Of a stretch of DNA of 64,000 nucleotides, positions 3,918 to 63,206 are shown one piece after another. Source of the DNA: Eledone cirrhosa. Its lineage: Eukaryota. Every line of letters begins with the position of its first letter. Positions within the stretch are counted from its first letter, which is position 1. Where the stretch lies: contig OZ024740.1 of NCBI GenBank assembly GCA_964016885.1, forward strand, positions 257,982,001 to 258,046,000. The letters run 5' to 3'. The translations under genes were made by a program, and so were the position numbers. The notes below the pieces were generated by a model. The model was not told where the DNA came from and ran no database searches. It saw nothing but the letters and a program-made list of their open reading frames with translations.

Positions 3918-4252
3918 CATATATATATACACATCTATATAGAGATAAATCTACCAAAATATACGGTAGTATCCAATCCGTATGAAGAACTCAATGTAAT
4001 CCAAATATCATGAAAAGAGAAGATGCATTCAAAAATTTTCGTTGAAAATCACAGGAAAACAGAGTCAAGATAAATTAATAAAAACAATGAATAAAAACAA
4101 AGAACAAGTTCCTTATATTAAAAAATTCATCATTTTACGATCGTTTCGAGGATATATATGTGTGTTGGTATGAATATCATATGTAAAAATATTACAAACT
4201 ATCAGAGGAAATATTCATACCTTCACATATATATGCTGTCTTCAGAAATAAT

Positions 4253-5379: not shown

Positions 5380-5765
5380 ATTAATTCTTGTCGCTTATTT
5401 AATAGGACATCCTTAGATTTCATTATTTCAAAAAGTTCCTGGGAGCATAATCTACACTCATATCTGCTATTTTGATAAGGGGTGGCCCATTTGAACACAC
5501 TCTATGTCAGGTTGTAACCGATATCCTTTTTTCTATAATTATTAATTGTTTCAGCCAAGGATGTTGTATTAGCTAATGCGGCATTTTTAAAACTATGTTT
5601 GTGGGTATTAAATCTTACTTTAAATTGGTTAGACGTAGCTCCTATATATGAATACGTTGAGTCCTTAGTGCTAATTTTACATTTATATACTATGTTATCA
5701 ATAAGACAATTTCCCTTTAATGGGCAATTTCATTTGTTTCTACAGTTACAAACATTCGTGAATAT
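5380..5765 (-). mobile_element. Naiad-like Penelope GIY-YIG endonuclease remnant
   Basis: Minus translation NVCNCRNK*NCPLKGNCLIDNIVYKCKISTKDSTYSYIGATSNQFKVRFNTHKHSF. Confidence 0.8.
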
Positions 5766-5835
5766 TATATCAGGGGAGTTAGTCAAATTTGGTGTGGAAT
5801 TTACTCGACTTGGTAATTGGTGGTTTGTTGTGTGT

Positions 5836-6102
5836 TGATAAAAAATCTTCTACTTCTCTTTCACATCTTATATGCAACTTAAAAAGCAAGAATATAGACT
5901 ATTAAATATCGTGGAAAACGATTTCAAAGCACCTGCGTACTGAAACGTGGCTTTATCAAAATTCAGTAAATTGTGTATCGAAGAAATTTTTTATATAATT
6001 AATTGTCAAAACACTATTAATGTCAGAACAGAATTATTTAATTCTTGCAAACATCGCCAACATTCTACATTCAGAACTATGTGTAACTTATAATATTCCT
6101 AT
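5836..6102 (+). mobile_element. Naiad-like PLE endonuclease C-terminus, same family as 39655-39922
   Basis: Direct nucleotide similarity (AAATTGTGTATCGAAGAAATTTTTT, CAGAACAGAATTATTT, TTCAGAACTAT...TAATATTCCTATA). Confidence 0.75.
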
Positions 6103-6173
6103 AAATCTTCAAAATGATCCTATCTGTTTTAACAATTTATATTATTAATATATTAATATCTCTAAATCATAAT

Positions 6174-8372: not shown

Positions 8373-8427
<55 letters not shown>

Positions 8428-8701
8428 TTAAAACATGTCTATAGAATCACCAGATAAAATATATACCGTTTCCTCTCCAAATTAGCATAATTAAACATAT
8501 AAAAAGTCGATTAGACCGAACTATAAGAATAAAGGCTTCTATGAAGAAATCTCCGACAAATAACCGAAAGCAACCCTTCGCGGCGGTTGCGACGGAGTAT
8601 TTATCGAGTATTTCGACAGCGTGTATAAATCGACCAGATATACAGTCAACCAAACAGAATTAGGTGTAAAATAAACTAGGAGAAAAGTGAACATATTTAG
8701 T

Positions 8702-8781: not shown

Positions 8782-8980
8782 GCTCAAATTTAGACAATTA
8801 ATTTTCCAAAGTGATCGCGCCAAGAATACATTCAAAAATGGCTAAGAATCGTGACGTAGCAATGGTCAGGTTAGAAAGGATGTGATTAGTTGCTTACGGC
8901 TGGTGGCCTTTTGCTAGAAATCGCAGCCCAATACAGCCAAAATTGTATCTCAACCTAACGGGAGATTATTACATATAAAG

Positions 8981-9075
<95 letters not shown>

Positions 9076-9607
9076 TTTTGCAACGGGTCACTTTGTGGCT
9101 CAATGAAGAGTTAATAAATTAAATAATCATAGCTATATATTATAAAAACATGTCTATAGAATCACCAGATAAAATATATACCGTTTCCTCTCCCAATAGC
9201 ATAATTAACCATATAAAAAATCGATTAGACCAAGCTATGAGAATAAAGTGACCCGTTACAAAACACACATACAAATCCACATTTCTACTCCGATTCCCTT
9301 CAAACTTGCATTTTTATATTCCTTGCGGTCTAAAGATATTAACTGCAGCTTTTATTTTTCAATTTTCTGTTGTTAAAGGGGTATTAGGCGCCATTTATCC
9401 ATCTCCATCGCCCTCTTATAATATCTGTCTCTATGCCTGGCTGTCTGCATTACGATATTCTGAGGAACATTGCTGGCGTATTATGTTCGCTATTGTCCGT
9501 TCATTGCCAGGGAACGTCTTCACGAACCAAAGTATCGTCTTCCTGTTTTCCTTCGGTTGCAACGTTTTTCGAAATATTTACTTCTGCGTTCACAGATTGA
9601 TGTTTTT

Positions 9608-17753: not shown

Positions 17754-19205
17754 CCGTATTTTTCGGACGATAAGGCGCACTGTCTATGAACGGGTCTACT
17801 TTCATACATAAGGATTATAAGGCGCATATAGCGAAACAAAACTTTTAGGTAGGTTGTCTTTATTCAAGTCATTCACATTAATAACACTCATTGTTGTTCA
17901 CTTGAATAATACAGCAAATACAGAAAATTGTCAAAGTCACTTTAATCCCGTTCCTCTTCTTGATCCACAAACCCATCAAAGTCTTCATCCTTTGTATCTG
18001 AGTTTAACAGTTGGACGATTTGAGCATCCAACATTCCCGGATCACTCTCGTCATCGTCCGAGTCAGTATCGTCGCTGGTACCTGGTTGTTCAGTGATGAT
18101 TCCGGCCTTCACAAAAGCTCAGACGACAGTTTAGACTGATACCTTGGCCCAGGCATCGGTGATCCAGGCATCGATGATCCATTGGTAGACAGTGGTGTAA
18201 ACAACCCGGCGTAGCCTCCTTGTCTTAGTAATGGTGTGCCCGCCTTCTCTCACCCACGGCTCGCAATTTAACCTTAAACGACTCGTTAATACTAATATCT
18301 ACCGGTTAAAGATTTTGGTTAATCCTCCCGAAATGATGGCAAGCTCCGAGTTAGTTTGCTTCAATTGGTTTTTGACGGTATTCGTGAGATGGGCGCGCAT
18401 CGTATCATAGATCAATAGGGACGGAGATGTGTGGAAAAAACCTCCCAGTCTCTTTACGTAGATTTCTCCTAGCCACTCACTCATCTTCTCCTCGTCCATC
18501 CAGCCCTTTGGCTTGACATTGGCGATGACTCCGGTCGGAAACTTTTCCTTTGGCAGTGTTTTCCACTTGAAAATGACCTTGGGTGGTAGCTTCTTGTCAT
18601 TGGCCTGACAACCGAGGACGAATGTGAAAGATGACTTCTTGTTCCCTGTGGTGCGTATAGATACCGTACGGGTCCCTGTTTTCTCAACAGTACGGCTCAT
18701 GGGGATGTCGAAGGTGAGGGGCACCTCGTCCATGCTGGAGATGAGGGCTGTCTGGATCTTCTTTTTAGTGATCTTGTTCTTGCACTAGGTGCGGAAGATG
18801 GCCAGCTTTTCTTCGTAATTCTCTGGCAGCTGCTGCGAGACGGTAGTTCTTGTGCGGATGGAGAGATGACGCCTTTTCATAAAATGAAAGCACCAAAAAT
18901 TGCAAACGAAATCTCCTTGAAAATCGCTGATCTTCATGTCACGTGCCATCGCTGTTACCTTGAGTCGAATGGAAACTGTCGAGACGCTTCTACCTGCTGC
19001 TCTCTGTTCAATGATCCGCTGTTCAATTGTCCTGTAGCTTTGTTCTCTCGGAAACTCTGTTTAGTCTTCTTGACTTGGCGCAGGCCATCTTCTTGCTTCC
19101 TCCACTTCTATACCATTGACTCGATGATGCTGAACTCTTTTGCAGCTGTTCTATTGCCATGTTCTCTTGTGTAACTGATGGCCTTGCGTTTGAAATCCGC
19201 TTGGT
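17754..19205 (-). mobile_element. pogo-family (POGK-like) DNA transposon, one TIR, disrupted transposase
   Basis: TA|CCGTATTTTTCGGACGATAAGGCGCAC end; MDEVPLTFD...KGWMDEE...LLIYDTMRAH DDE_1 domain; N-terminal ADFKRKAISYTREHGNRTAAKEF; abuts a LINE at 19210. Confidence 0.9.
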
Positions 19206-21546: not shown

Positions 21547-21549
<3 letters not shown>

Positions 21550-22814
21550 GGGTTGGACAAAATAATGGAAACACCTAGCATCATAGCATCATAATTTTGA
21601 AATATCTATAAAACCGTCAAAAGTTTGTTTATTTTTATGTTTTTTTATTTATTATTAGTGTTGCTTAATATGTTTTGTTAAAATTGATGTTTCTTTTTAG
21701 ATATCATCAGAAAAATGTAATTAAAATTCATTAAAATGACAGATCTATCGGACTTACAAAGAGGTCAAATTGCTGGTGCTCGTATGGCAGGCGCTAGCGT
21801 AACGAAAACAGCCGAAATGTTTGGTGTATCAAGAAGTACTGTCTCGAAAGTAATGACAGCCTTTGAAAAAGAGGGAAAAACCTCCTTGTCGAAACAAAAC
21901 TCCGGAAGAAAACCAACACTTTCAGAGAGGTACCGTCGGACTCTTACGCAAATTATTAAAAAGAATCACAAAAGTACAGCTCCCAAAATTACTGCAGAGC
22001 TTAATGACCACTTCTAGAACTCAGTTTCCACAAAAACTGTTCGCCGGGAGCTGCTCAAAGCCGGATTTCATGGGAGGGCTGCAATCAGAAAACCACTACT
22101 TTCAAAAACAAACGTTGCAAAACGTTTAGAGTGGAGTAAAAACCTACAGAATTGATCCCTAGAGCAGTGGAAGAATGTTATTTTCTCGGACGAGTCATCC
22201 TTTACCTTATTTCCGACCACCGGCCGAGTATACGTGTGGAGAAAGAAGCATTTGACCCAGACTGCCTTCTTCCAACTGTTAAACATGGAGGAGGATCTGT
22301 GATGATCTGGGGGGCTATATCTTGGAAATCCGCCGGCCCAATGGTTTCCCTTCATGGCAGAATTAATAGTCAAGACTATTTATGCATTTTATCTGATCAA
22401 TTTCATCCTATGGTTGCGGAACTGTTTCCGGAGGGAAACGCAATCTTCTTTCAGGATAATAATGCACCAATTCACACAGCTAAAGTTGTTACTGAATGGC
22501 ACAAGGAACATTCTAGTAAAGTTGAACATCTTATCTGGCCACCACAGTCCCCAGATCACAATATTATTGAACATTTATGGTGCATATTAGAAAAAAAGTA
22601 AGGAGTCGATATCCTCCACCATCATCACTACAAGAACTGGAGACAGTTTTCGCTGAAGAATGGACAAAAATTCCTTTGGAAACAATTCAAACTTTGTACG
22701 AGTCCATACCTCGTAGAATTCAAGGTGTAATTACTGCCAAAGGCGGTCGTATCCCATATTAAAATAAATTTTTTTGAAATTTTAAGGTGTTTCCATTATT
22801 TAGTCCAACCCTTG
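21547..22814 (+). mobile_element. Full-length Tc1-family transposon (DD36E-like) with decayed transposase
   Basis: TIRs CAGGGGTTGGACAAAATAATGGAAACACCT / AGGTGTTTCCATTATTTAGTCCAACCCTTG inside (TA)n; ORF pieces 21736-22762 with IFSDES, TVKHGGGSVMIWG, WPPQSPDHNIIE. Confidence 0.95.
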
Positions 22815-24726: not shown

Positions 24727-25370
24727 TAATTCTTTCTACTTTTGGCACAAGGCCAGCAATTACCCCAGTGCATTACTCGTACTTTATTTTATCGACCCAG
24801 TAAGGATGAAAGTCAAATTTAACCTCGGCGGGATTTTGAACTCAGAATAGAAAGGGCCGTAACTCTATGCGTCAAAGCATCGCGTCCGACCCTCTACCGG
24901 GTCACTACAATAAATCTGCCAATTCACTACAATAAATCTGATTTAGGCACAAGACCAACAACTTTGGGTAAGGGGAAGTCGAATAAATGAACCCTAGTGC
25001 ATTACTGGTACTTTATTTTATCGACCTCGTGAGGGTGAAAGACAAATCTAGCCTCGGCAGGAATTCAACTCAGAAATTATATTGGTGGAATAATTACTGT
25101 TAAACTTTTGCCCAATACTCTACCGATCTTAATTATAGTACTGCTCATATCAATGTTATTATTAGGTCAGAATCGCTAGGGCGTCGGACAACATGCTTAG
25201 CGTCATAGAATTGCGGCCCTTTAAGTTCTGAAATCAAAATCCTGCCGAGGTTACCTTTGCCTTTCATCTTTACGGGGTCGATACAATAAAGTATCGGTAT
25301 TGCATTGGAGACGATTTAATCGACTTCCCCTCCCGCCAAAATTGTTGGCCTTGTGCCTAAAGCAGAAACC
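24727..25370. mobile_element. Cluster of three SINE copies (24727-24899 minus, 24940-25128 minus, 25165-25370 plus)
   Basis: Shared core GCCTTTCATC..ACGGGGTCGATA.AATAAAGTA and GGCCTTGTGCC tail. Confidence 0.85.
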
Positions 25371-26184: not shown

Positions 26185-26900
26185 TGGAGCCGACCTATGA
26201 TACAAAATATATAAGGAAATTAATATGCAAATGGCAGAGCATAAACCTGTAACGTAGATCTTAGGGCGATCGGTGTAACATAGAGTATGGCAAAGCTCGT
26301 CCTTTCAATTACAGTTGCGCTGGTTTGAATCAGCGTTAAATAAAGTTTCTTGCTGAAGGACACCACATGCGCATGTGTTTAGCACCGACGCTTCAGCAAG
26401 CAGGGTAGAGCACTCGTTGAAATACACAAGGGGGGTATATTTATAAAAATGAAGTATAGGTCAATAGGTTATAATTCACTTCGCTATTCTTTATCGCTGT
26501 TATATATATTTCTGAGATAAATGTCGCATAACGGTTATCACCGAAATATATACAACAGCGATAAAGGATAAGCGAAGTGAATTATAACCTATTGACCTAT
26601 ACTTCATTTTTATAAATATACTCCGGAATAAACAGACCCCCTTGTGTATTTCAACGAGTGCTCTACCCTGCTTGCTGAAGCGTCGGTGCTAAACACATGC
26701 GCATGTGGTGTCCTTCAGCAAGAAACTTTATTTCACGCTGATTCAAACCAGTTCAACTGTAATTGAAAGGACGAGCCTTGCCATACTCTATGTTACACCG
26801 AATCTCCCTAAGATCTACGTTACAGGTTTATGATCTTGTAGAATGCTCTGCCATTTGCATATTAATCTCCTTATATATTTTGTATCATAGGTCTGCTCCA
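26185..26900. repeat. ~330-bp-arm fold-back inverted repeat with apex in a hammerhead helix II
   Basis: Arms 26185-26510 and 26543-26900 near identical; right arm starts GAAA-TATA-TA|CAACAG after GATAA...TTATC stem; arms include a CORE-SINE-like piece. Confidence 0.9.
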
Positions 26901-30174: not shown

Positions 30175-30402
30175 CATACATACATACATACATACATACA
30201 TGGTGGCTGCCAACTCGTTTTCGAGTACGGCCACTACTTTATATCCGATGCGCTGAACGAGTGTGACTTTTCAGTCCAGCCAGCGACTTGAAAACTCTGG
30301 TACAAACACTACACTTGTGACAATTATTGACACATGGTGCTGGGCCCATGGTACCATGTGACGACAAGTGTAGAGAGATCTCCAGATATAAAGCAATGCC
30401 TG
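30175..30402 (-). mobile_element. RTE LINE 3' end (zinc finger, stem-loop, (TATG)n tail)
   Basis: [22 protein letters not shown] then ACTCG AAAA CGAGT hairpin; near identical to 62490-62712. Confidence 0.75.
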
Positions 30403-32659: not shown

Positions 32660-33519
<860 letters not shown>

Positions 33520-36628: not shown

Positions 36629-37975
36629 ATACTTGGGGAGGGTCATATTTGTGTAATATTGTCAGAATTAATAACAGAACACACTCACTGTTTGGTTGGT
36701 TTTCGCTTTTCGCTTCTGTGTCTTTTATATCGGTAATCTAATATACTCGGTCCTCAATGTTGCCATTGACTGACCGACGGTCAAAAATAATACAGATACA
36801 ATATAGACACAAACACATATATATAGTTTATCATAAATCTTTCGTTGCACATCTGCAACATCATCAGTGGTGCTATTGTTTCCTCCTATTGAATTGTATG
36901 GCTACGCCATTTTTTATTCAGTCTGTCTATATATTTATTTATTTGCTTGTTTGTTTATTTTATTTTGTCTTCTTTGCGCATGCGTTTTCGTGTGTATAGT
37001 GTTTTGTTTGATGTGTGATGTGTGTTCGTGATTGGGTGTTTAATGTGTGTTTATGTGTTTGTTGTTAATGTGCTTGTGTATGTATTTATTTATTTATTTA
37101 TTTATTTATTTTATTTTATTTTATTTACTTATTTATACTTCTCTTAGGTCAGTGTTGTTTGTTTGGGTGTTGTTGTTATTCCATTCATTCTTTCTGTTTA
37201 GTCTTGGTCTTCTAAGTTCTATTTCACTGGCCTCTCTGATTTGCCTATCTGCTGGGTCATTTCTATGTTTAGATATTATTCTAATTTCTATGTTGTCTAT
37301 GTTACCGTCATGTTGTTGTCTGGCATGTTCGTATAGTACTGACCCGTTTTTTCGTCCTTTTAGTTCCCCCCAGTGTTGGTCTATCCTTTCACCTATGCTA
37401 CGAGCTGTCTCACCTATGTATGTTGTTGTCATGTTTCTGCAGGTACCCTCTGTACATCTTATGCTATAGACTACGTTTCTAGTTTTACAGTTTATCCGGG
37501 GGTTTACCTTACATATGATACATTTCCTATTGGTACAGTGGGTTTTCTTAAAAGGGTATGTTTTGCTGATCAGGGATTTTATGGTGGTTCCTGGCTTTTC
37601 TACCACCTTAATTTTTAAGTGGGTCTTTCTCAGGGCCTTTCTACACTGGTTAGCTAATTTCCCTCCAGGGGTAGCGTCCACAAACATGACACTCTGGTAT
37701 CTCTAGTTGTCGTACCATGAGGTGGCTTTCCCTATCTTATGTCTAGCCCTATCTAAGCTATTCCATGATTTGCTCCTATATAATGGGCAAATTCCTTTCA
37801 TGTCCAGTTCTATAACTCTGTCTCTTTGGTTGTAGCCAGAGAACTGCATGCGGTTGATGAAGTGTTGGATGTGTCTTTCCATTTCTGTTGGGTCGCACAT
37901 GCGGGACACATTCTTCATCACTCGTACCAAATCTGCGATCAGAATATTAAACTTAGCACTACTGGACATTGCTGA
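36622..37975 (-). mobile_element. Poseidon-like Penelope element 3' part (RT thumb, Cys linker, GIY-YIG, 3' pLTR)
   Basis: [19 protein letters not shown]...SGY; ORF 37133-37687 CTNRKCIIC...CKTRNVVYSIRC...YIGETARSIGERIDQH; both ends in (TA)n. Confidence 0.9.
36830..36871 (-). ncRNA. Hammerhead with one extra core nucleotide
   Basis: ACCA-CTGATGA-T-GTTGCA gatg TGCAAC-GAAA-GATT-TA|TGAT in the PLE 3' UTR. Confidence 0.75.
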
Positions 37976-38170: not shown

Positions 38171-38494
38171 GGTTTCAGTAAGTAAGGAACTCAATATATA
38201 GCAGAGTATAAATATTTAATACAGAAATGGCTTCTACAAGACTCGGAAATCATCAGGAAAGCCGATTGTCAATGTGTTATGGTGGTACTTATACTTTTTT
38301 CTGGTGGTAGGCGAAGGTGGTGATTGAGATGGGTGGAGGTCATTGGCTGATGGATTTAAACTATACTTAGAGAAAAATACATAGTGTTACAGAATGATAC
38401 AAATACAGGCAATCCTAATTTTCAAGGTTCATTTATTCAAGCGTTTTCATTAACATACCCTGTTGAAGTCTGCAAATTGGTCAGGTGCTTACAA

Positions 38495-38535
<41 letters not shown>

Positions 38536-38547
38536 CACATACATACA

Positions 38548-38578
<31 letters not shown>

Positions 38579-38609
38579 GCGCACACACGCATATACACAC
38601 AGACAAGAG

Positions 38610-39922
38610 CCGACAGAAAAAACAATTTTGATATCTCTATGGGATCATCTGACTCGGCGCAACTAACGGACTTCGTTGGATTATTTATTAATAATTTACT
38701 GCATAGGAAAATCCCAGAGATGGCCGGAGGTTTATATCGTGACGATATGTTGCTTTTAATTGAAAACCATAGCAATAGTGAAATTAATAGGAAAAGAAAA
38801 TCCATAATACAATTTTTCAACAACTATAATCTTAGGGTAGAAATAGAGAATAACTACAAAATCTTTAACTTCTTAGATGTAACCTTAAACCTTAGCACAG
38901 GTCTTTACTCTCCTTTCCATAAAATTAACGAAAATCTAAATTATTTAAGTTTCAATTCTAATCATCCTAGAAGTATTAAAAACACTATTGTCAATAGCGT
39001 CCAACAACGGATTTCACGCATCTCCGCTAATAAAAATATTTTTGATGATAAGGCTGAATATTATAATGAAGCTTTACATAAAGCGGGATACTCAAATAGT
39101 ATTAAGTACATAGATAACAATAACATGACATATCATCCTAGTATTAACTTAAACAATAAACCAAACACAAAAACTAGAAATAGAAATATTATTTGGTACT
39201 CTCCCCATTCTCATTAAGCGTTAAAACAACTTTAGCAAAGCTATTCTTTAAAGCACTAGATAAATGTTTTCCTAAAGCCCACAGATACCACTCTATTTTT
39301 AACAGACACACTATAAAACTACCCTACTCTACTACTATGAACATGGCACAAAATATAAATAGAATTAATAATAGAAACTTAAATTTAAACCCTAAACAAA
39401 CTAACCAAAATAGCAATAATAATATTTCTAACAACAATATTCAGAATAATAGTACCGTTCTGAACAACAATAATTCCAGTAAATGTAACTGTAGAATCAA
39501 ATCAAACTGCCCTTTACAAAATAATTGTTTAGATAAATACGTAGTTTATAAATGCACAGTTAAAACTAGAGACAAAATGTTTAACTAAGTTGGTGCCACT
39601 TCAACAAAATTTAAAGAATGCTGGAATAAGCATAATCATCCATTTAAGAGATCTGATAAAAAATCTTCTACTTCAATTTCACATCTAATTTGGAATTTAA
39701 AAGACAACTATATAGACTATTCAATATATTGGAGAACAATTTCGGGAGCACCTGCATACCGAAATATGGCTTTATCAGGATTATGTAAATTGTGTATCGA
39801 AGAAATTTTTTTATATAATTAACTGTCAAAACTCTATTAATCTCAGAACAGAATTATTTTCTTCTTGCAGACATCGACAAAATACCACGTTCAGAACTAT
39901 TTTTAATTTATAATATTCCTAT
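38610..39922 (+). mobile_element. Naiad-like Penelope RT + GIY-YIG remnant (5'-truncated)
   Basis: FDISMGSSDSAQ, GGLYRDD, NFLDVT, SNHP, CNCRIKSNCPLQNNCL, VVYKC, CKLCIEE, SCRH. Confidence 0.9.
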
Positions 39923-46143: not shown

Positions 46144-46237
46144 GGGTAACGTTCAGTTAGTGTAGGTTCACCCGAGTGAGTACTCGATACGTAGTTTCCA
46201 ATCGGTAAAGAGGTGTAGATCTAAGCAGAGTGTAATT

Positions 46238-46419
46238 ATAATTGTTTCTACATTTGGCACAGGGCCACGAAGTATCCCAGTGCATTACTGGTACTTTATT
46301 TTATCGACCCCGCAAGGATGAAAGGCAAAGTTAACCTCGGCGGGATTTGAACTTAGATCGTAAAGGCCCGTAATCCATGCTGCAAAGCATTGCGTCCAAC
46401 GCTCTACCGATATTGCCAA
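46238..46419 (-). mobile_element. tRNA-derived SINE
   Basis: Family match. Confidence 0.9.
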
Positions 46420-46421
46420 AT

Positions 46422-46484
46422 AAAAGCTCGTCGGACCTCTGCTGTAGCAATGTCATTACTACAGCAGAGGTCCCGCGAGCTTTT
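46422..46484. repeat. 63-nt near-perfect hairpin
   Basis: AAAAGCTCG..GGACCTCTGCTGTAG.AATG T CATT.CTACAGCAGAGGTCC..CGAGCTTTT. Confidence 0.9.
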
Positions 46485-46533
46485 GATTCTAGAGTCGGGC
46501 TAGATCGATATAGATAGAACTTTGAGCTGAAAC

Positions 46534-46568
<35 letters not shown>

Positions 46569-46693
46569 GTATATTTATATATGTATATATGTATACATAT
46601 ATTCTAACGATTTTCTCTGTAATAATAATATATTACCTACACTCTACTTTATTAAGCATCGAGCACTATGTTGAACACTACTATATTAATGAG

Positions 46694-46884
46694 GGCGGTA
46701 GATTGGCAGTATCGGTAGAGGGTCGGACGCCATACTTTCCAGCATAGTTACGCCCTTTTACGAACTGATTTCAAATCCCGCCGAGGTTAATTTTGCCTTT
46801 CATCCTTACGTGGTCGATAAAATAATGTACCAGTTATGTACCGGGATAATTGCTGGCCCTGTGCCAAAAGTAGAAACAATTATA
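46694..46884 (+). mobile_element. tRNA-derived SINE
   Basis: Family match. Confidence 0.9.
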
Positions 46885-48226: not shown

Positions 48227-48351
48227 TGTGTCCTTTGCTGGACACCACCAGAGGGGGTTAGCCCCGGTGTTTGCATAGCTACGGCTTCCAAAAACCGTGT
48301 TTATATATATATATAGAGAGAGAGATAGATAGATAGATAGATATAGATATA

Positions 48352-48494
48352 TAATTAGAAAGTGAACAACACAATATATAACTAGTCCATTACCAAGGGT
48401 TTCAGGATCCTACACAATATTAAACATAATCTAGTTGGCTCTGAAACCTTTGGTAATGGAGTAGTTATATAGTGTGTTGTTCACTTTCTAATTA
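48352..48494. repeat. Fold-back of 3'-half hammerhead pLTR
   Basis: Arms 48352-48405 / 48441-48494 start at CTGAAACCTTTGGTA|ATGG; same family as 11362. Confidence 0.8.
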
Positions 48495-48556
48495 AATAGC
48501 TCGGTTTTTACATAGAGCACTCCTTTTTTCCTTTGATTTTTCTTCGGAAATACTGG

Positions 48557-48686: not shown

Positions 48687-48759
48687 TAAAACTTTTATAC
48701 TCTGCAATGTATTGAGTACCTTATTCACTGTGGTTACCTCCGATTCAACCCGGAATAAC

Positions 48760-48800
<41 letters not shown>

Positions 48801-48803
<3 letters not shown>

Positions 48804-50008
48804 AAATATGATAATTATGGAGCTGCGGCGCTGCAAATGGGTTACATATGAAAAAGTTTGTCCTCATCAGTGGCCTTCCAACCGTCGTAGGCATTTCGTC
48901 GCATTAAAGGCCATATACCTCAGGTTGGTGCGAGCAACGGCTAAAAAAAGTCGTTGGGACACGTAAATAAGGGGGACGCTAGGGTAAACAAACAAAATGG
49001 TTTAAGCAACAGAAAGTGATGAAGAAGAAAGAAACAAGTCCCAGATTTCTATGAATATAAATTCGGTGGAATCGTGAACGAGAGAATAAAGACCATCAAA
49101 CCTGGTTGAAATGTGAGCAAGGAAGGAATTTCGCACAGGTCTAACGGGAGGAAGAAGGGGTCTGGTCTGCGAATTCGGTAAACATAAGTTCTGTGAAGTC
49201 GCAGACGAGAGAGAGAGAAAAAAAATTCATACCGGCTTGGCCAAGTACCCGCGAGAAAAGGATTACGGACAGGTCAAACGGGAAGAAAGGGGAGGAGGAG
49301 AGGTAGTGACAGAGAGTGAGTGAGTGAAAGGTGAGGAAGAGGCTAACAGAGAGAGAGAGACTGCTAGAAAGGGTAAAGACACAAAGAACGAAACAGACTG
49401 GTGGCAGCGGAGGAAAAAATATATGTGTAAATATGATAATAATGGAGCTGCGGCGCTGCAAATGGGTTACATATGAAAAAGTTTGTCCTCATCAGTGGCC
49501 TTCCAACCGTCGTAGGCATTTCGTCGCATTAAAGGCCATATACCTCAGGTTGGTGCGAGCAACGGCTAAAAAAAGTCGTTGGGACACGTAAATAAGGGGG
49601 ACGCTAGGGTAAACAAACAAAATGGTTTAAGCAACAGAAAGTGATGAAGAAGAAAGAAACAAGTCCCAGATTTCTATGAATATAAATTCGGTGGAATCGT
49701 GAACGAGAGAATAAAGACCATCAAACCTGGTTGAAATGTGAGCAAGGAAGGAATTTCGCACAGGTCTAACGGGAGGAAGAAAGGATCTGGTCTGCGAATT
49801 CGGTAGAAATCTGGGACTTGTTTCTTTCTTCTTCATCACTTTCTGTTGCTTAAACCATTTTGTTTGTTTACCCTAGCGTCCCCCTTATTTACGTGTCCCA
49901 ACGACTTTTTTTAGCCGTTGCTCGCACCAACCTGAGGTATATGGCCTTTAATGCGACGAAATGCCTACGACGGTTGGAAGGCCACTGATGAGGACAAACT
50001 TTTTCATA
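48801..50008. repeat. 625-bp-period partial tandem plus inverted third copy, between (TA)n tracts (PLE-like architecture)
   Basis: 48801-49180 = 49426-49805; 49805-50008 is the reverse complement of about 49470-49676. Confidence 0.9.
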
Positions 50009-50084
50009 TATATATATATATATTTATTTCGTTTCTGAATTTGTTTAGCAAGATTCTTTATCTGAAAACGTGTGTTGAAACCGA

Positions 50085-50760
50085 TATTGTTATAGTTTGG
50101 GAGGGTCATGTGCCAATAAGAAACACACGCACCAGATGCTTTCACTTCCATTTATTATAATAAATTTATAAATTTAGGAATTTATACATTTCCGGTTGGT
50201 TGGTTGGTTCCACAACCAGATGATTGTTTATATATTGTCAACGTTCTTTCGTCACACACACAAAAGAGGCAATGTTTAGACAAATCACAGAGGCAATAAA
50301 CATAAATGAACTCCAACCAAAATTAAATAGAAAACATGAATGGAACAGCAGCATCACAACTTACAATTAAGGACAAAATGAAAACACACACATAGAACAA
50401 ACAACCAACCAGTAACATGTAAATAAACAAATAAATAAACAAATATAATCACACACAGACACCCGGATGTAACACATACACAAACTAAGCACACAACACA
50501 CACAAAAACAAGATGGCGTAGGACAGAACAAAGGAGAGGCACAAAAACAAAGAAAAGAATCCCCAGTCACTGAAGAGGTCACATAATGTGTGACGAAAGA
50601 ACTTTGGCAATATATGAACAATCATCTGGTTGTGGAACCAACCAACCAACCGGAAATTCATAAATTCCTAAATTTATAAATTTATTATAATAAATTCCAT
50701 TTAATGCATCTGGTGCGTGTCTTTCTTACTGGCAACATGACCCTCCCAAAGTATAACAAT
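50085..50760 (+). mobile_element. Poseidon-like PLE 3' fragment with inverted 5' pLTR
   Basis: 50085-50258 is the inverse of 50588-50760; the middle encodes ELQPKLNRKHEWNS. Confidence 0.85.
50566..50608 (+). ncRNA. Hammerhead with one extra core nucleotide
   Basis: GTCA-CTGAAGA-G-GTCACA taatg TGTGAC-GAAA-GAAC-TT|TGGC. Confidence 0.7.
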
Positions 50761-50771
50761 ATATATATATA

Positions 50772-50856
<85 letters not shown>

Positions 50857-50984
50857 AAGTATGTTTTGAAACAGTGAGCGAGTTTGAAATTAGAAATATA
50901 AGCTTTCACCGTAATTTTGACTAAAGAAATTTTTAGCCTGATAGTGGGGTTTAGAACCCTCAGAGAAATGGAAAAAGATGAGTT

Positions 50985-51055
50985 TGACGTACATGGGAGT
51001 CGAACTCACATCTTTGGTTACCCAGACCACTGTGCTACCATTACACCAACACATC
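50985..51055 (-). tRNA. tRNA-like sequence (anticodon position GGG); pseudo-tRNA or SINE head
   Basis: Inverted copy of 51270-51340; one T-stem mismatch. Confidence 0.5.
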
Positions 51056-51269
51056 ACCCATCTCCTTCCATTCAATGTACGTCAATACTCATCTTTTTCC
51101 ATTTCTCTGAGGGTTCTAAACCCCACTGTCAGGCTAAACATTTCTTCAGTCAAAAATACGGTGAAAGCCTATATTTCTAATTTCAAACTCGCTCACTGTT
51201 TCAAAACATTGTTACGTGTCATTTACTTGCTAAGAATGTAGCTTCTAATTTGAATGGAAGGAGATGGGT

Positions 51270-51340
51270 GATGTGTTGGTGTAATGGTAGCACAGTGGTC
51301 TGGATAACCAAAGATGTGGGTTCGACTCCCATGTACGTCA
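51270..51340 (+). tRNA. tRNA-like sequence (anticodon position GGA) with T6 terminator
   Basis: GATGTGT-TG-GTGT AATGGTA GCAC-A-GTGGT CTGGATA ACCAA-AGAT-GTGGG TTCGACT CCCAT-GTACGTC-A; TTTTTT at 51350-51355; non-canonical U37 and wobble-rich acceptor. Confidence 0.55.
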
Positions 51341-51708
51341 ATACTCATCTTTTTTCCATTTCTCTGAGGGTTCTAAACCCCACCATCAGGCTAGAAATTT
51401 CTTTAGTCAAAATACGGTGAAAGCTTATATTTCTAATTTTATATATATATAGACAATCGCCAAAGACAGACGAATGCGAGAAAGTTCTCCAACCCAAGTT
51501 AACCAGGAATCTTTAAAATTCTTCCCACCGAAGTTAAAGAACTTAAGTCATTCTTTTCCCTTTTTTTCAAATATACCGAACTGTACCAAGGATCTTACAC
51601 ATTTTCCAATATATAATACCAATGATGGTTGGAAAATCACTGACAAAGGACTATTTTTATCTTATGTAACCCATGTGCAAACCACGCAATATTCTTCTTT
51701 CTTCTCAT

Positions 51709-53040: not shown

Positions 53041-55055
53041 TACACCACCTACACCACACCACCTACACTACACCACCTACACCACATAACCTACACCACA
53101 CCAACTACACCACACCACCTACACCACACCACCTACACCACACCACCTACACCACACCAACTACACCACACCACCTACACCACACCACACCACCTACACC
53201 ACACCACCTACACCACGCCACCTACACTACACCACACCACCTACACTACACCACCTACACCACACCACCTACACCACACCACCTACACCACGCCACCTAC
53301 ACTACACCACACCACCTACACTACACCACCTACACCACACCACCTACACCACACCACCTACACCACACCAACTACACCACACCACCTACACCACACCACA
53401 CCACCTACAGCACACCACCTACACCACACCACCTACACCACACCACATACAGCACACCACCTACACCACACAACACCACACCACCTACACTACACCACCT
53501 ACACAACACCACCTACACCACACCACCTACACCACACCAACTACACCACACCACCTACACCACACCAACTACACCACACCACCTACACCACACCACACCA
53601 CCTACAGCACACCACCTACACCACACCACCTACACCACACCACATACAGCACACCACCTACACCACACAACACCACACCACCTACACTACACCACCTACA
53701 CAACACCACCTACAAGACACCACATACACCACACCACATACACCACACCACCTACACCACACGATCTACATCACACCACATACACCACACCACCTGCACC
53801 ACACCACCTACACTACACCACCTACACCACACCACCTACACCACACCACCTACACCACACCACACCACCTACACCACACCACGCCACCTAGACCACACCA
53901 CCTACAGCACACCACCTACAGCACACCACCTACACCACACCACCTACACCACCTACACCACACCACCTACACTACACCGCCTACACCACCTACACCACAC
54001 CACCTACACTACACCATCTACACCACCTACACCACACCACCTACACTACACCACCTACACCACCTACACCACACCACCTACACTACACCATCTACACCAT
54101 ACCACCTACACCACACCACCTACACCACACCACGCCACCTACACCATACCACACCACCTACACCACACCACCTACACCATACCACACCACCTACACCACA
54201 TCACCATCACCTACACCACACCACCTACACCACACCACACCACCTACACCACACCACCTACACCACACCTCACCACACCACCTACACCACACCACACCAC
54301 CTACACCACACCACCTACACCACACAACACCACCTACACCACATCACCATCACCTACACCACACCACCTACACCACACCACCTACACCACACAACACCAC
54401 CTACACCACACAACACCAACTACACCACACCACACCACCTACACCACACCACCTACACCACACAACACCACCTACACCACACCACACCACACCACCTACA
54501 CCACACGACCTACACCACACCACACCACCTACACTACACCACCTACACCACACCACCTACACCACACCACCTACACCACACCACCTACACCACACCACAC
54601 CACGTACACTACACCACCTACACCACACCACCTACACCACACCACCTACACCACACCACCTACACCACACCACACCACCTACACCACACCACACCACACC
54701 ACCTACACCACACCACCTACACAACACCACACCACCTACACCACACCACCTACACCACACCACCTACACCACACCACACCACCTACACCACACCACACCA
54801 CCTACACCACACCACCTACACCACACCACCTTCACCACACCACCCACACCACACCACCTACACCACACCACACCACCTACACCACACCACCTACACCACA
54901 CCACCTACACCACACCACCTACACCGCATCACCTACACCACACCACCTACACCACGCCGCCTACACCACACCACACTACACCACACCACCTACACCACAC
55001 TACACCAAACCACACCACACTACACTGTACCACACTACACCACACTACACCACAC
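53041..55055. repeat. ~2-kb minisatellite of CCACA and CCACCTACA modules (14-mer ACCACACCACCTAC)
   Basis: Direct reading. Confidence 0.95.
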
Positions 55056-55326
55056 CATACAACACCACACTACCCACAACACACCACTCCACTCAGCCCA
55101 CACCACACCACACTCACACAAACTCACACAATCACATATCCGTGTATCAACTACCATGAAAAGAGGCCCAGTCGAAACGATCAACGGAAAAACCTGCTCG
55201 TAAAATGAACGCACAAATGGCTCATTGTTCAAAATACACTTATACCTATACCGTAACTCTTCAGTGTGGCCAACTGTTTTGAATTAGTTGGCTAAAAGGC
55301 TATTTAGTTGGTTCGTAGTTGCGAGG

Positions 55327-59844: not shown

Positions 59845-61150
59845 CAATTCGACATAGTGGACTTCTACCCGTCGATCTCAAAGACCCTGATGGATATAAG
59901 CGTTGGATTTCGCCACTTCATACTCCTCCATCTAGGACTTGGATTGCAGAAAAACCCATCTCTTTACTAATTGTGTAGCCTTGGCAAAAAAATAAACTAC
60001 CTCAGAATTGTTCGATGTCTCAATGGGATCATTCGATAGTGCTAATGTATTCGATTTGGTTGCGTTATATATATTAGATACGTTGCGAGTAAAGTTCTCG
60101 GACACCCACACGGGTTTATTCCGCGACAACCGTCTGACACTATCGAGCTATAAAATCGGTCACAACCTTCACCGATTTAGGAAAAAACCTGATAAATACC
60201 TTCAATGAGTTAAGACTGAAGATAACTGTAGCCATCAATCTGACTCGCGTAATTTATTTAGACATCAACCTAGACCTTCATACACGCACACATTCAGACC
60301 TTTCCACAAACTTAATGAAAAATTAACTTATATACACAAGGACACATGCTACCCAAATATGGTCTTTAAAATCTTCATTAAAATATCAGCACTAAGATTT
60401 CTAATCTTTCTTCGGACAAGGCCATCTTTGACAGAGCGGCACCCTATTATAACAGTGCATTATCCAACAGCGGTTTCTCCGGAAAAATTTCTCACTCCCA
60501 TCCTAATTAATCACACTACCAGTAGAAAGAAAAAATAGAAATGAAAAACAATTTGATTCTGCCCACCATTCTCGCTTGGAATTAGAACTCATGTAGGTAA
60601 GAAATTCTTAGATCACATTGACAAACACCACCCTATAAACACAGACTTATCTTTAATAAACGCAGGATGAAACTCGCATATACCTGTGCTAAAAATACGA
60701 AATCCCACACCACCACCAATCCCAAGAGCTCTCACCCACTTGGATGCTCTTGTAGAAAACCATAATAATGCCTTCTTTGAAAACAGTGAAACATAGACGC
60801 AGTCTTCTATGAGGATAAAATTACATCCTCACGGCCAAATCAAAAGCGAGAGGTCAAATCATATGTTGGTATATCGGAGGGCCGGTTTAAAGAACGTTTC
60901 CTTAACTATCAGATAACCATTAGACACTCTGTTAAGTGATCGACCACGAAGTTGGTAATCTGCGTATGGTCATCCAAGGATGCAATCGTGAATTTTCTCT
61001 ATATAATTTTCTCTATGACGCGGTGTCCTGTAAGTTGTGCATTGATGTAAGAGGTAATATCTTATAGAGGTTATGTAAAAGTACTTGCCTAAACACCAAA
61101 GACGATCTTTTTAATCGCTCCCCCCAAGTTGCAAATTTTCTATTCCGTAG
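59845..61150 (+). mobile_element. Naiad-like Penelope RT + GIY-YIG, heavily decayed
   Basis: FDIVDFYPSIS, FDVSMGSFDSANVFDLVALYIL, GLFRDN, CSCRK, SYVGISEGRFKER, CKLC. Confidence 0.8.
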
Positions 61151-61349
61151 CTAGAAGGACCCAGGATAACTAGAAATTTAATCCAGACTGAACTACCACT
61201 AAGTAGTCCAGCCAGCGACTTGAAAATTCTGTCTGCCTTGTATTCAAAATAACAACATCTGCCCCGCGGAATCCAGTCAACTCATATATAATTCCGTTCT
61301 CACAGCAACCATACACGGTTCAGATAAATGGAAAAAAATCAGTATTGAC

Positions 61350-61403
<54 letters not shown>

Positions 61404-61405
<2 letters not shown>

Positions 61406-61836
61406 TAAAACATGTCTATAGAATCACAAGATAAAATATATACTATTTCCTCTCCCAATTAACATAATTAACTATATAAAAAATCGAATAGACCAGGCTA
61501 TACGAATGTATTCTATTTTCTCCTAGTTTATTTTAAACCTAATTCTGTTTAGTTGACTATATCTAGGCGATTACGCTGTCGAAATATTCGATAAATATTC
61601 CGCTACGGCCGACGCGAAACGCTAGTTTCGGTTATTTGTCGGAGATTCCTTCATAGAAGCCTCATTCGTATAGCCTGGTCTATTCGATTTTTTATATAGT
61701 TAATTATGCTAATTGGGAGAGGAAATAGTATATATTTTATCTTGTGATTCTATAGACATGTTTTATGATATATAGCTCTGATTGTTTAATTTATTAATTT
61801 TTCATTGAGCCACAAAGTGACCAGTTGTAAAACACG
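61404..61836. repeat. pLTR tail with ~105-bp inverted arm (family of the 8702 HHR)
   Basis: 61404-61507 is the inverse of 61662-61768; the middle is the inverse of about 8535-8690. Confidence 0.85.
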
Positions 61837-62449: not shown

Positions 62450-62489
62450 CATATAAATATATATATATATATATACATAGATATATATA

Positions 62490-62895
62490 CATGGTGGCTG
62501 CCAACTCGTTTTCGAGTACGGTCGCTACTTTATATCCATGTAGGAGAACCCCTACCGATGCACTGAACGAGTGTGACATTTTAGTCCAGCCAGCGACTTG
62601 AAAATTCTGGTACAAACACGAGACTTGTGACAATTATTGACACATAGTGCTGGGCCCATGATACCATGTGACGACAAGTGCAGAGAGATCTCCAGATATA
62701 AAGCAATGCCTGGGCTGTGAAGCTTTTATAGTGAGCAAAGGCACTGCACAAAGCCAGTCCCATTCTCTTAACCAAGATGATATTTACCAAAAAGAAGAAC
62801 AAGTCAACATCATTGACTACCATCAGAGTTGCAGGTGTTATATCAGAGTTTTCCTTCTCCTAGAATTCTGCCTAAAGCCAAAAGGCTAAGGGGTC
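62490..62895 (-). mobile_element. Short bipartite RTE derivative (5' UTR piece fused to 3' end)
   Basis: 62828-62890 resembles the RTE 5' UTR at 21150-21210 (TATATCAGAGT..CCTTCTCCTAGA); 62490-62712 matches the RTE 3' end at 30199-30402. Confidence 0.7.
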
Positions 62896-63004: not shown

Positions 63005-63206
63005 ATGTTAGAACAAAGGAGAGACACACAATAACAAGTTATCACTGAAGAGGTCACAGAAGGTGTGATGAAAGTGCTTTGGCAATAAACAACAAAGGAA
63101 ACATCCGGTTATTAAACTAACCAACTGTAAATTTATATTAAATTAATGTGAAGCCCAACAGGTGTGTGTTTTTTATCGGCAGCATGAGTTCCCCAAAGTA
63201 TAACAT
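63005..63206 (+). mobile_element. Solo Poseidon-like pLTR with HHR at 63041-63083
   Basis: ATCA-CTGAAGA-G-GTCACA gaagg TGTGAT-GAAA-GTGC-TT|TGGC; terminus CCCCAAAGTATAAC. Confidence 0.7.

Follow-up and report, generated by a model that had tools for sequence, protein, structure and literature searches.

PLE insertions have a recognisable layout. As described in the available part of PMC8557442, a full copy follows a truncated one, and the 5' end frequently bears a further copy that is inverted and 5'-truncated; the targets are (TA)n, and a tail of 30-40 bp is present at one end only. Mobilisation by PLE enzymes has also been proposed for retrozyme and MRC1-type units (available parts of 10.64898/2026.07.22.740005, PMC7229834 and PMC8557442). 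Here we compare with these systems an element found in a 64-kb window, the whole stretch of DNA that was analysed.

Layout of the element and its neighbours

The window is AT-rich and dense in microsatellites. The element consists of three copies (A, B and C), pairwise 93-96% identical and set between (TA)n runs:

50759..50854, no strand: left target microsatellite, (AT)n then (GT)n
50855..50886, minus: one-sided tail of A, extending past the end of C; also in B
50861..51075, minus: copy A, inverted and 5'-truncated, from 20 nt before the tRNA to the tail end (by alignment)
51075..51209 (start 51075/6), plus: copy B, 5'-truncated at tRNA position 64/65; trailer, body and tail; a pLTR-like partial copy
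51210..51251, plus: stretch between B and C, occurring once; starts with TGTT one base after the AACA of B and has TTCTAATTT at its end
51243..51251, plus: upstream copy of the 9-bp direct repeat TTCTAATTT
51250..51439, plus: copy C; leader, cloverleaf, trailer and body, without tail
51431..51439, plus: downstream copy of the 9-bp direct repeat TTCTAATTT, the 3' end of C
51440..51451, no strand: right target microsatellite, (TA)6

In the alignment, 184 of 191 columns were identical between A and C, 133 of 141 between A and B and 102 of 110 between B and C, and each copy carried private substitutions and indels (4-7% pairwise). The initial annotation had placed the copies at 50861-51075, 51076-51208 and 51250-51437, which the alignment reproduced within 1-2 nt. 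Its unit of ~215 bp was too short: B and C form a direct tandem with a period of 256, so the unit comes to 256 bp once the 41-nt stretch between them is counted in. A adjoins B at 51075. At the outer ends, C passes straight into (TA)6, and A has 26-32 further bases (26 nt match exactly, and up to 32 nt, as far as 50855, if two mismatches are allowed) followed by (AC)n(AT)n; C has no tail. The TA runs on the two sides of the element are 50+ nt and 12 nt long. The copies had been described as lying between microsatellites; the right-hand one is no longer than (TA)6 (51440-51451). No ORF was found in the element.

Set against the published PLE layout, the element has the partial tandem (B-C, the pLTR), the inverted copy at the 5' end (A) and the (TA)n target, and its tail of 26-32 nt is slightly below the published 30-40 bp. 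It is the third insertion in a series, after the two neighbours below, all with the same layout:

48799..50005, minus: tandem copies plus an inverted one, inserted in (TA)n; tail of 46 nt on one side; arms 99-100% identical
50084..50762, plus: inverted-plus-sense PLE 3' end; remnant of a GIY-YIG C-terminus; hammerhead core at 50570

The first neighbour is young and non-coding, with 382-bp repeats that are 99.2% identical and a CTGATGA core with no clear GAAA; by its sequence, it was likely active until recently, as a non-autonomous PLE or a retrozyme. Its internal repeat ends with the tail and a ACACATAT remnant, and B likewise ends in ACAT at its junction. The coincidence of the end of A with the junction of B is therefore expected. 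The second neighbour belongs to a PLE 3'-end family (50084-50762, 32949-33491 and 63042-63200) with hammerhead cores at 50570 and 63045, in which the inverted arm and the junction at 33229 both begin inside hammerhead stem II.

Six other fold-backs, chosen by eye from the ~19 non-microsatellite fold-backs in the window, were compared with the element. In all six, one arm meets a microsatellite and the other runs on for 46 to ~90 nt (for those at 50084, 61404 and 2307 the lengths were read by eye, as short internal runs stopped the counting). This extension recurs in another copy in four of the six. In 3/6, no more than 10 nt separate the start of the inverted arm from a hammerhead-like GAAA; in 48799 the arm begins ~180 nt upstream, and in the fold-backs at 61404 and 2307 no core was seen by inspection. 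Arms also begin at a hammerhead-like GAAA in the fold-backs 26185-26900 and 48345-48501, suggesting that the reverse transcriptase stalls or switches at an uncleaved ribozyme there. A non-coding fold-back family in (TA)n (61404-61774, 8377-8697 and 8967-9244) has a ~62-nt tail and no central hammerhead core that could be seen. Fold-backs in this window are not unique to PLE sequence, because two pairs of SINEs (46237-46884 and 24937-25366) are also inverted, with their 3' ends outward.

An abundant tRNA-derived SINE of ~190 bp occurs at 4248, 6169, 24726, 28374, 34184, 36101, 46237 and 46697. It has 16-bp TSDs in three of seven near-full copies; a TA run of at least 12 on both sides was found for 0/13 matches, and a long TA run on one side for 1/13. 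The window also holds a 2-kb minisatellite (53042-55087; 14-bp unit, 145 copies) and DNA transposon remnants recognised by eye from translations, namely a Tc1-like one with ~30-bp inverted ends in (TA)n (21547-22814) and a pogo-like frame (18299-19174).

Assuming that all copies started out the same at insertion and that the calibration given in the available part of PMC13282606 holds (divergence of 0.09 = 25 My), the differences among the copies would put the insertion at ~5-10 My. Among the 110 columns shared by A, B and C (51075-51439 and 50887-50994), all six substitutions that could be polarised run from A/T to G/C, and five of these six are A>G or T>C. The numbers are tiny; the bias could hint at A-to-I editing of an RNA template.

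The tRNA-like head, its predicted helix and the hammerhead search

The head of the element and its surroundings comprise the following features:

50966..50983, minus: 3' arm of the helix in A, holding the T5 run
50985..51055, minus: tRNA-like cloverleaf of A; anticodon GGG; one broken T-stem pair (ARAGORN, Rfam)
51056..51073, minus: 5' arm of the helix in A, a purine-rich leader
51252..51269, plus: 5' arm of the helix in C, the leader
51270..51340, plus: tRNA-like cloverleaf of C; anticodon GGA; A box ~51277-51287, B box ~51319-51329
51343..51361, plus: 3' arm of the helix in C, holding T6 (51350-51355)

ARAGORN called two tRNAs in the whole window, in A (GGG) and C (GGA), and the Rfam tRNA model was matched over positions 1-71 of 71 with 49.7 bits in C and 43.8 bits in A (gathering 29). 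The A and B boxes are intact in both copies. A T-run follows 9 nt past the discriminator (T5 in A and B, T6 in C), and B starts at tRNA position 64/65. These results bear out the earlier description of a 71-nt cloverleaf with A and B boxes, a T5-6 run downstream, anticodons differing between GGA and GGG, and a middle copy broken in the T-arm/acceptor region. In C, the acceptor stem has 7 pairs (3 G-U), the D stem 4 (1 G-U) and the T stem 1 G-U; the anticodon stem has a G-A mismatch, the variable region is 4 nt and the loop reads CT GGA TA, making 5 G-U pairs, one mismatch and no A-C pair in total.

The tRNA parts of A and C differ at 2 of 71 nt, a divergence no lower than that of the flanks. 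Non-canonical features are a U at position 37 and, given the Ser anticodon, the shortness of the variable arm. Judged on its sequence, the cloverleaf is not a working tRNA, because the pyrimidine at 37, the short variable arm and the differing anticodons make it unfit for translation. Phage BLAST for the parent isotype gave weak matches only, the best at E 0.03 (tRNA-Met, tRNA-Trp); the D arm and acceptor end may resemble those of eukaryotic tRNA-Trp. A tRNA-Arg(CCG) from a MAG (L001 94-164; GTDB genomes) matched the D-arm region exactly over 22-25 nt and differed in the T arm and the rest. This match was taken as chance, since millions of tRNAs had been compared.

The 18 nt before the tRNA are complementary to 18 nt starting 2-3 nt after it. 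The predicted helix has 18 consecutive pairs, 4 of them G-U, in A and for B against C; in C alone, one extra T interrupts the pairing and leaves 14 consecutive pairs. With 5000 shuffles as control, none went above 15 pairs and eight had 14. Across the window, 14 pairs were reached at 18 of 16,417 positions, three of them in the element and most of the others in fold-backs. The duplex energy was -23.6 kcal/mol on the tRNA-sense strand vs -13.8 on the antisense strand, and the fold z was -3.72 in A and -2.64 in C (sense), compared to -0.71 for C antisense. The whole monomer folded no better than shuffles (z -0.47 sense, 0.12 antisense); the leader/trailer helix alone did so. We read the predicted helix as an 18-bp extension of the acceptor stem, confined to the tRNA-sense strand. 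A starts at its 5' edge, 19-20 nt before the tRNA. A further helix, of ~12 bp, is predicted to close the tail and the upstream stretch on the sense strand (51160-51178 with 51233-51244). The 18-bp arms were also considered as a MITE, which was ruled out: the arms pair only with G-U, and there is no TSD.

The helix alters two points of the initial annotation. The ~20 nt upstream had been taken to lie outside a Pol III transcript; since this flank is predicted to pair with the trailer, that claim is weak and the flank is likely a transcribed leader. Sequence beyond the terminator, given as ~120 nt, is indeed present past the T-run but measures 111 nt in A and 84 nt in C, and the T-run itself belongs to a helix arm. 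A T5-6 run at such a position is normally an efficient Pol III stop. Because it sits in the 3' arm and pairing continues beyond it, the putative 'terminator' becomes half of a helix, and an RNA forming the complete helix would have passed the T-run.

The descriptor search, allowing up to one core mismatch, found no hammerhead site in the element on either strand, the doubled monomer included. Of 21 loose core matches, the strict form of the descriptor accepted 5, all outside the element, and the neighbouring core at 50570 escaped it; its sensitivity is therefore moderate and the negative a soft one. Rfam at E up to 10 over 48700-51500 returned no hammerhead, not even at the canonical 50570 core, so this second negative carries no weight. 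Within the moderate sensitivity of the descriptor, an intact hammerhead is not evident in the element. An antisense candidate seen in B alone, a loose match at 51149 with CTGA..GAAA round a small hairpin, failed the stem tests, and Rfam miRNA matches over 48700-51500 were put down to microsatellites and fold-back.

How the insertion may have arisen

Traces of possible partners for the element are present in the window, and one of them ends in a short piece of related sequence:

59848..61150, plus: decayed RT and GIY-YIG reading frame of a Hydra-clade PLE, with frameshifts and stops
61320..61352, minus: piece D; acceptor 3' strand and 3' helix arm; abuts (TA)n; antisense to the upstream Hydra-clade PLE

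The profile of A and C, searched against the 64-kb window, returned A, B, C and piece D, with nothing else below E 0.7. D, which had been noted near 61325-61352, is identical to B at 30 of 33 nt (BLAST E 1.6e-7); by nhmmer profile it covers 61320-61354 at E 0.0087, compared to E 2.6 for the best match in the reversed window. It begins at about tRNA position 67 and still pairs over 15 nt with the 5' helix arm. It lies at the 3' end of the Hydra-clade PLE but antisense to it, diverges from the element after 33 nt, and is preceded by a degenerate hammerhead-like stretch (61204-61231) common to another repeat. On these features D could be the 33-nt tail of the Hydra-clade copy, or an unrelated remnant.

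Hydra-clade motifs were matched at 38360-39900, 5430-6103 and 59848-61150, with a CxCX5C linker at ~39480. The frame at 37133-37702 resembles GIY-YIG clusters, and homologues named for the frame at 38612-39214 include two Octopus proteins; the host is presumably an octopus. Pfam gave no family for any of three PLE fragments; their identity as PLEs comes from these motif, cluster and homologue matches. The three Hydra-clade locations represent at least three families, compared to a single octopus family in the published set. One hammerhead-like variant, in which the CTGA core is longer by one base and stem III reads GAAA-AT-TC (61186-61231, 62562-62609 and 30253-30299), occurs both at a Hydra-clade 3' end and in another repeat (30196-30402, 62489-62712).

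The 9-bp repeat TTCTAATTT lies on both sides of a 179-bp core of C; among 1037 control window pairs, 4 had a 9-mer in common. This repeat is absent from the initial annotation. At the B-C junction the sequence is AACA-T-TGTT, a pattern with 29 instances in the 58,795 nt left unmasked. Neither feature had been sought in advance; both came to attention in hindsight. The TTCTAATTT pair may go back to an old TSD; it may also be what is left of the 3' end of a previous copy after fusion to the 5' end of an RNA. Both readings place an RNA start at the helix edge (51252). The initial annotation had named the absence of TSDs as a check and ordinary TSD-flanked SINEs as evidence against a PLE association; the whole insertion lies within (TA)n, and the TSD-like repeat round C goes part of the way towards that contrary outcome.

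We think it probable that PLE machinery made this insertion. This earlier suggestion gained from the inverted copy, the tandem, the one-sided tail, the (TA)n target and the neighbours; a link to a particular autonomous PLE did not emerge. We give about an even chance to a fuller reading, which is our preferred one: the element would be a non-autonomous, self-propagating, tRNA-headed unit, transcribed from its A and B boxes and copied in trans by PLE enzymes. The head would likely serve as an internal RNA polymerase III promoter, a role made plausible by the intact boxes, the start of A 19-20 nt upstream and the precedent of Helenus. Transcription would start ~18-20 nt before the tRNA, near 51252, and would at times continue beyond the one T5-6 run. 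An autonomous PLE would supply the enzymes in trans: its GIY-YIG nuclease would nick (TA)n, and reverse transcription primed at the RNA 3' end (TTCTAATTT) would copy C, the upstream stretch and then B, where the reverse transcriptase would stall inside the folded tRNA at position 64/65 to leave the 5' end of B. Priming from the other side would give A, inverted, with its tail, and running to the helix 5' edge as the presumed RNA 5' end. The tRNA hairpin would be the structured RNA at the arm starts, where several neighbours have a hammerhead.

The autonomous PLE remnants in the window support this passenger reading; the TSD-like TTCTAATTT pair, the LTR-like junction, the T5-6 stop and the lack of similarity between the element and any PLE 3' end within the window count against it. 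No full copy was found beyond this locus in the 64 kb, and since the element amounts to one locus and one 33-nt fragment, the window lends no support to a self-propagating family. A further extension, which we hold to be unlikely, is a ribozyme-free octopus retrozyme family spread genome-wide by PLEs, in which the hairpin would be both Pol III promoter and RNase P/Z cut site; if true, this would be the first tRNA-headed PLE parasite.

A one-off passenger is the alternative that survives best, though we consider it somewhat unlikely. An ordinary tRNA-derived SINE or tRNA retrocopy with a 179-bp core and a 9-bp TSD would have been duplicated once with some flank, either by PLE enzymes in trans or by DNA template switching at the microsatellite, with no PLE-dependent family. 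The exact bracketing of the core by TTCTAATTT, rare in the control pairs, fits this, as do the lack of another full copy, the mere 33 nt kept in D, the occurrence of inverted SINE pairs in the window, and the movement of host RNAs in trans by PLEs described in the available part of PMC8557442. However, C ends with the repeat and then (TA)n, not with original flank, and TTCTAATTT could equally be an earlier copy's 3'-end remnant joined to the RNA 5' end. The SINE TSDs in the window are 16 bp, and the core, which ends without an A-rich or LINE-like tail, includes an internal T5-6; the one-sided tail and the (AC)n(AT)n end agree with the PLE neighbours.

Alternatively, the cloverleaf may be a processing signal at which host RNase P and/or RNase Z cut read-through multimers, doing the job that the hammerhead has in retrozymes and pLTRs. 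The initial annotation had offered such a role beside that of a promoter; no direct support for it emerged, and we regard it as quite unlikely. A whole cloverleaf is kept (49.7 bits) with no intact hammerhead, the hairpin stands at the place of the neighbours' hammerhead, and 256 nt is within the retrozyme range of 170-400 nt given in the available part of PMC7229834. The junctions, however, fall at -19/-20, +64/65 and ~+67 and none at +1 or +73, an argument that is weak because the neighbours' ends also miss the ribozyme cut sites. Bacterial RNase P is hindered where leader and trailer pair and lengthen the acceptor stem (PMC9433436, available part), and Helenus keeps whole cloverleaves with a promoter role alone proposed in the available part of PMC10886601.

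It is very unlikely that the unit is a Helenus-like TRIM LTR (TGTT...AACA with the tRNA inside) made by an LTR retrotransposon, of which (TA)n would have captured a junction between two LTRs together with an R-U5 piece in inverted orientation. This reading would account for the AACA-T-TGTT junction at which A also ends, for A spanning the would-be R-U5, and for the purine-rich, PPT-like leader; oyster Helenus LTRs start with TGT, have the cloverleaf 30-45 nt in followed by a T-run, and end in ACA (PMC10886601, available part). Yet the TGTT...AACA ends are found at the internal junction only, with 1 nt between them; there is no internal region, and neither a PBS-like TGG after CA nor a purine tract before TGTT is present at the junction. 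The outer ends lie within (TA)n and have no LTR termini with a 4-bp TSD. That A ends where B begins is already predicted by the PLE layout, and the available part of PMC10886601 lists Helenus among molluscs for bivalves only, with 'Octopus' absent from that part of its supplement.

A cluster of working host tRNA genes whose flanks are conserved, for which the scores above Rfam gathering, the ARAGORN calls, the boxes and the T-run might speak, is highly improbable given U37, the 4-nt variable region with a Ser anticodon, GGA vs GGG, the broken T-stem pair in A, the truncated B and a tRNA no better conserved than its flanks. An assembly artefact from fold-back long reads is barely conceivable: the window is rich in fold-backs, and assemblies have difficulty with PLE structures (PMC8557442, available part), but every copy has private substitutions and indels (4-7%), which makes a read artefact unlikely, and the arms are unequal with a tail present.

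Comparison with known systems

MRC1-type elements of Chlamys and animal non-LTR retrozymes, as far as the available descriptions go, share with the element short non-coding tandem units of 170-400 nt and a pLTR-like partial copy. They have a type I hammerhead, in contrast to the tRNA cloverleaf with A and B boxes and no intact hammerhead seen here, and within the window no 3' similarity of the element to an autonomous partner was demonstrated. Six short motifs of the element were all absent from the available part of the supplement of PMC8557442. Hydra-clade PLEs (Hydra-1_Obim) share the (TA)n target and have decayed members in the window, one ending in piece D; unlike the element, they are autonomous and have hammerheads.

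The tRNA head with A and B boxes is shared with octopus tRNA-derived SINEs (tRNA-CORE, tRNA-Deu; available parts of PMC13282606 and PMC8967140). The element differs in its internal T5-6, paired leader, microsatellite target and lack of a 16-bp TSD. Its T5-6 run 9 nt past the tRNA departs from the rule of no internal terminator, and it ends in TTCTAATTT rather than in an A-rich or simple-repeat tail. No 3' tail shared with a LINE partner was matched within the window, and similarity of its head to that of the abundant window SINE was at chance level (111 of 500 shuffles scored equally).

Schistosoma SINE-like hammerhead repeats, which we take to be Sm-alpha, offer a further comparison. As in our reading of the element, they are Pol III-promoted tandem units of which one drives the next, and they carry an active hammerhead whereas the element has none intact (PMC6765202, available part).

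Searches of the open-access literature returned no PLE-mobilised, hammerhead-free, tRNA-headed parasite; the element may already be present in subscription papers, in Repbase or in the O. vulgaris repeat library as an unclassified SINE. If the family is real, it would test the need for a hammerhead in PLE mobilisation, which is called unclear in the available part of PMC8557442, and might lie behind some of the inflated tRNA numbers and unclassified SINE families of cephalopods: ~17,000 tRNA-derived loci are given for the giant squid (PMC6962438, available part), and 893 unclassified, recently active SINE families for O. vulgaris (PMC13282606, available part). If it is a one-off, the locus would still be a clear PLE-type capture of a Pol III locus.

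Helenus, Cassandra and Ajax (TRIMp3; available part of PMC10886601) share with the element a small-RNA-derived Pol III promoter, putative in the element, in the terminal repeat of a non-autonomous retroelement, and Helenus in addition the whole cloverleaf, the T-run after it and a non-functional anticodon. The element differs from them in having no PBS/PPT internal region and no 4-5 bp TSD, and it lies in (TA)n with an inverted copy and a tail, which indicates PLE rather than LTR machinery. As part of our preferred reading, and with the same balanced odds, the element would by analogy be the PLE counterpart of Helenus. tRNA-headed parasites are known for LINEs (the SINEs) and for LTR elements (Helenus), and a PLE case, if the family is real, would complete the set.
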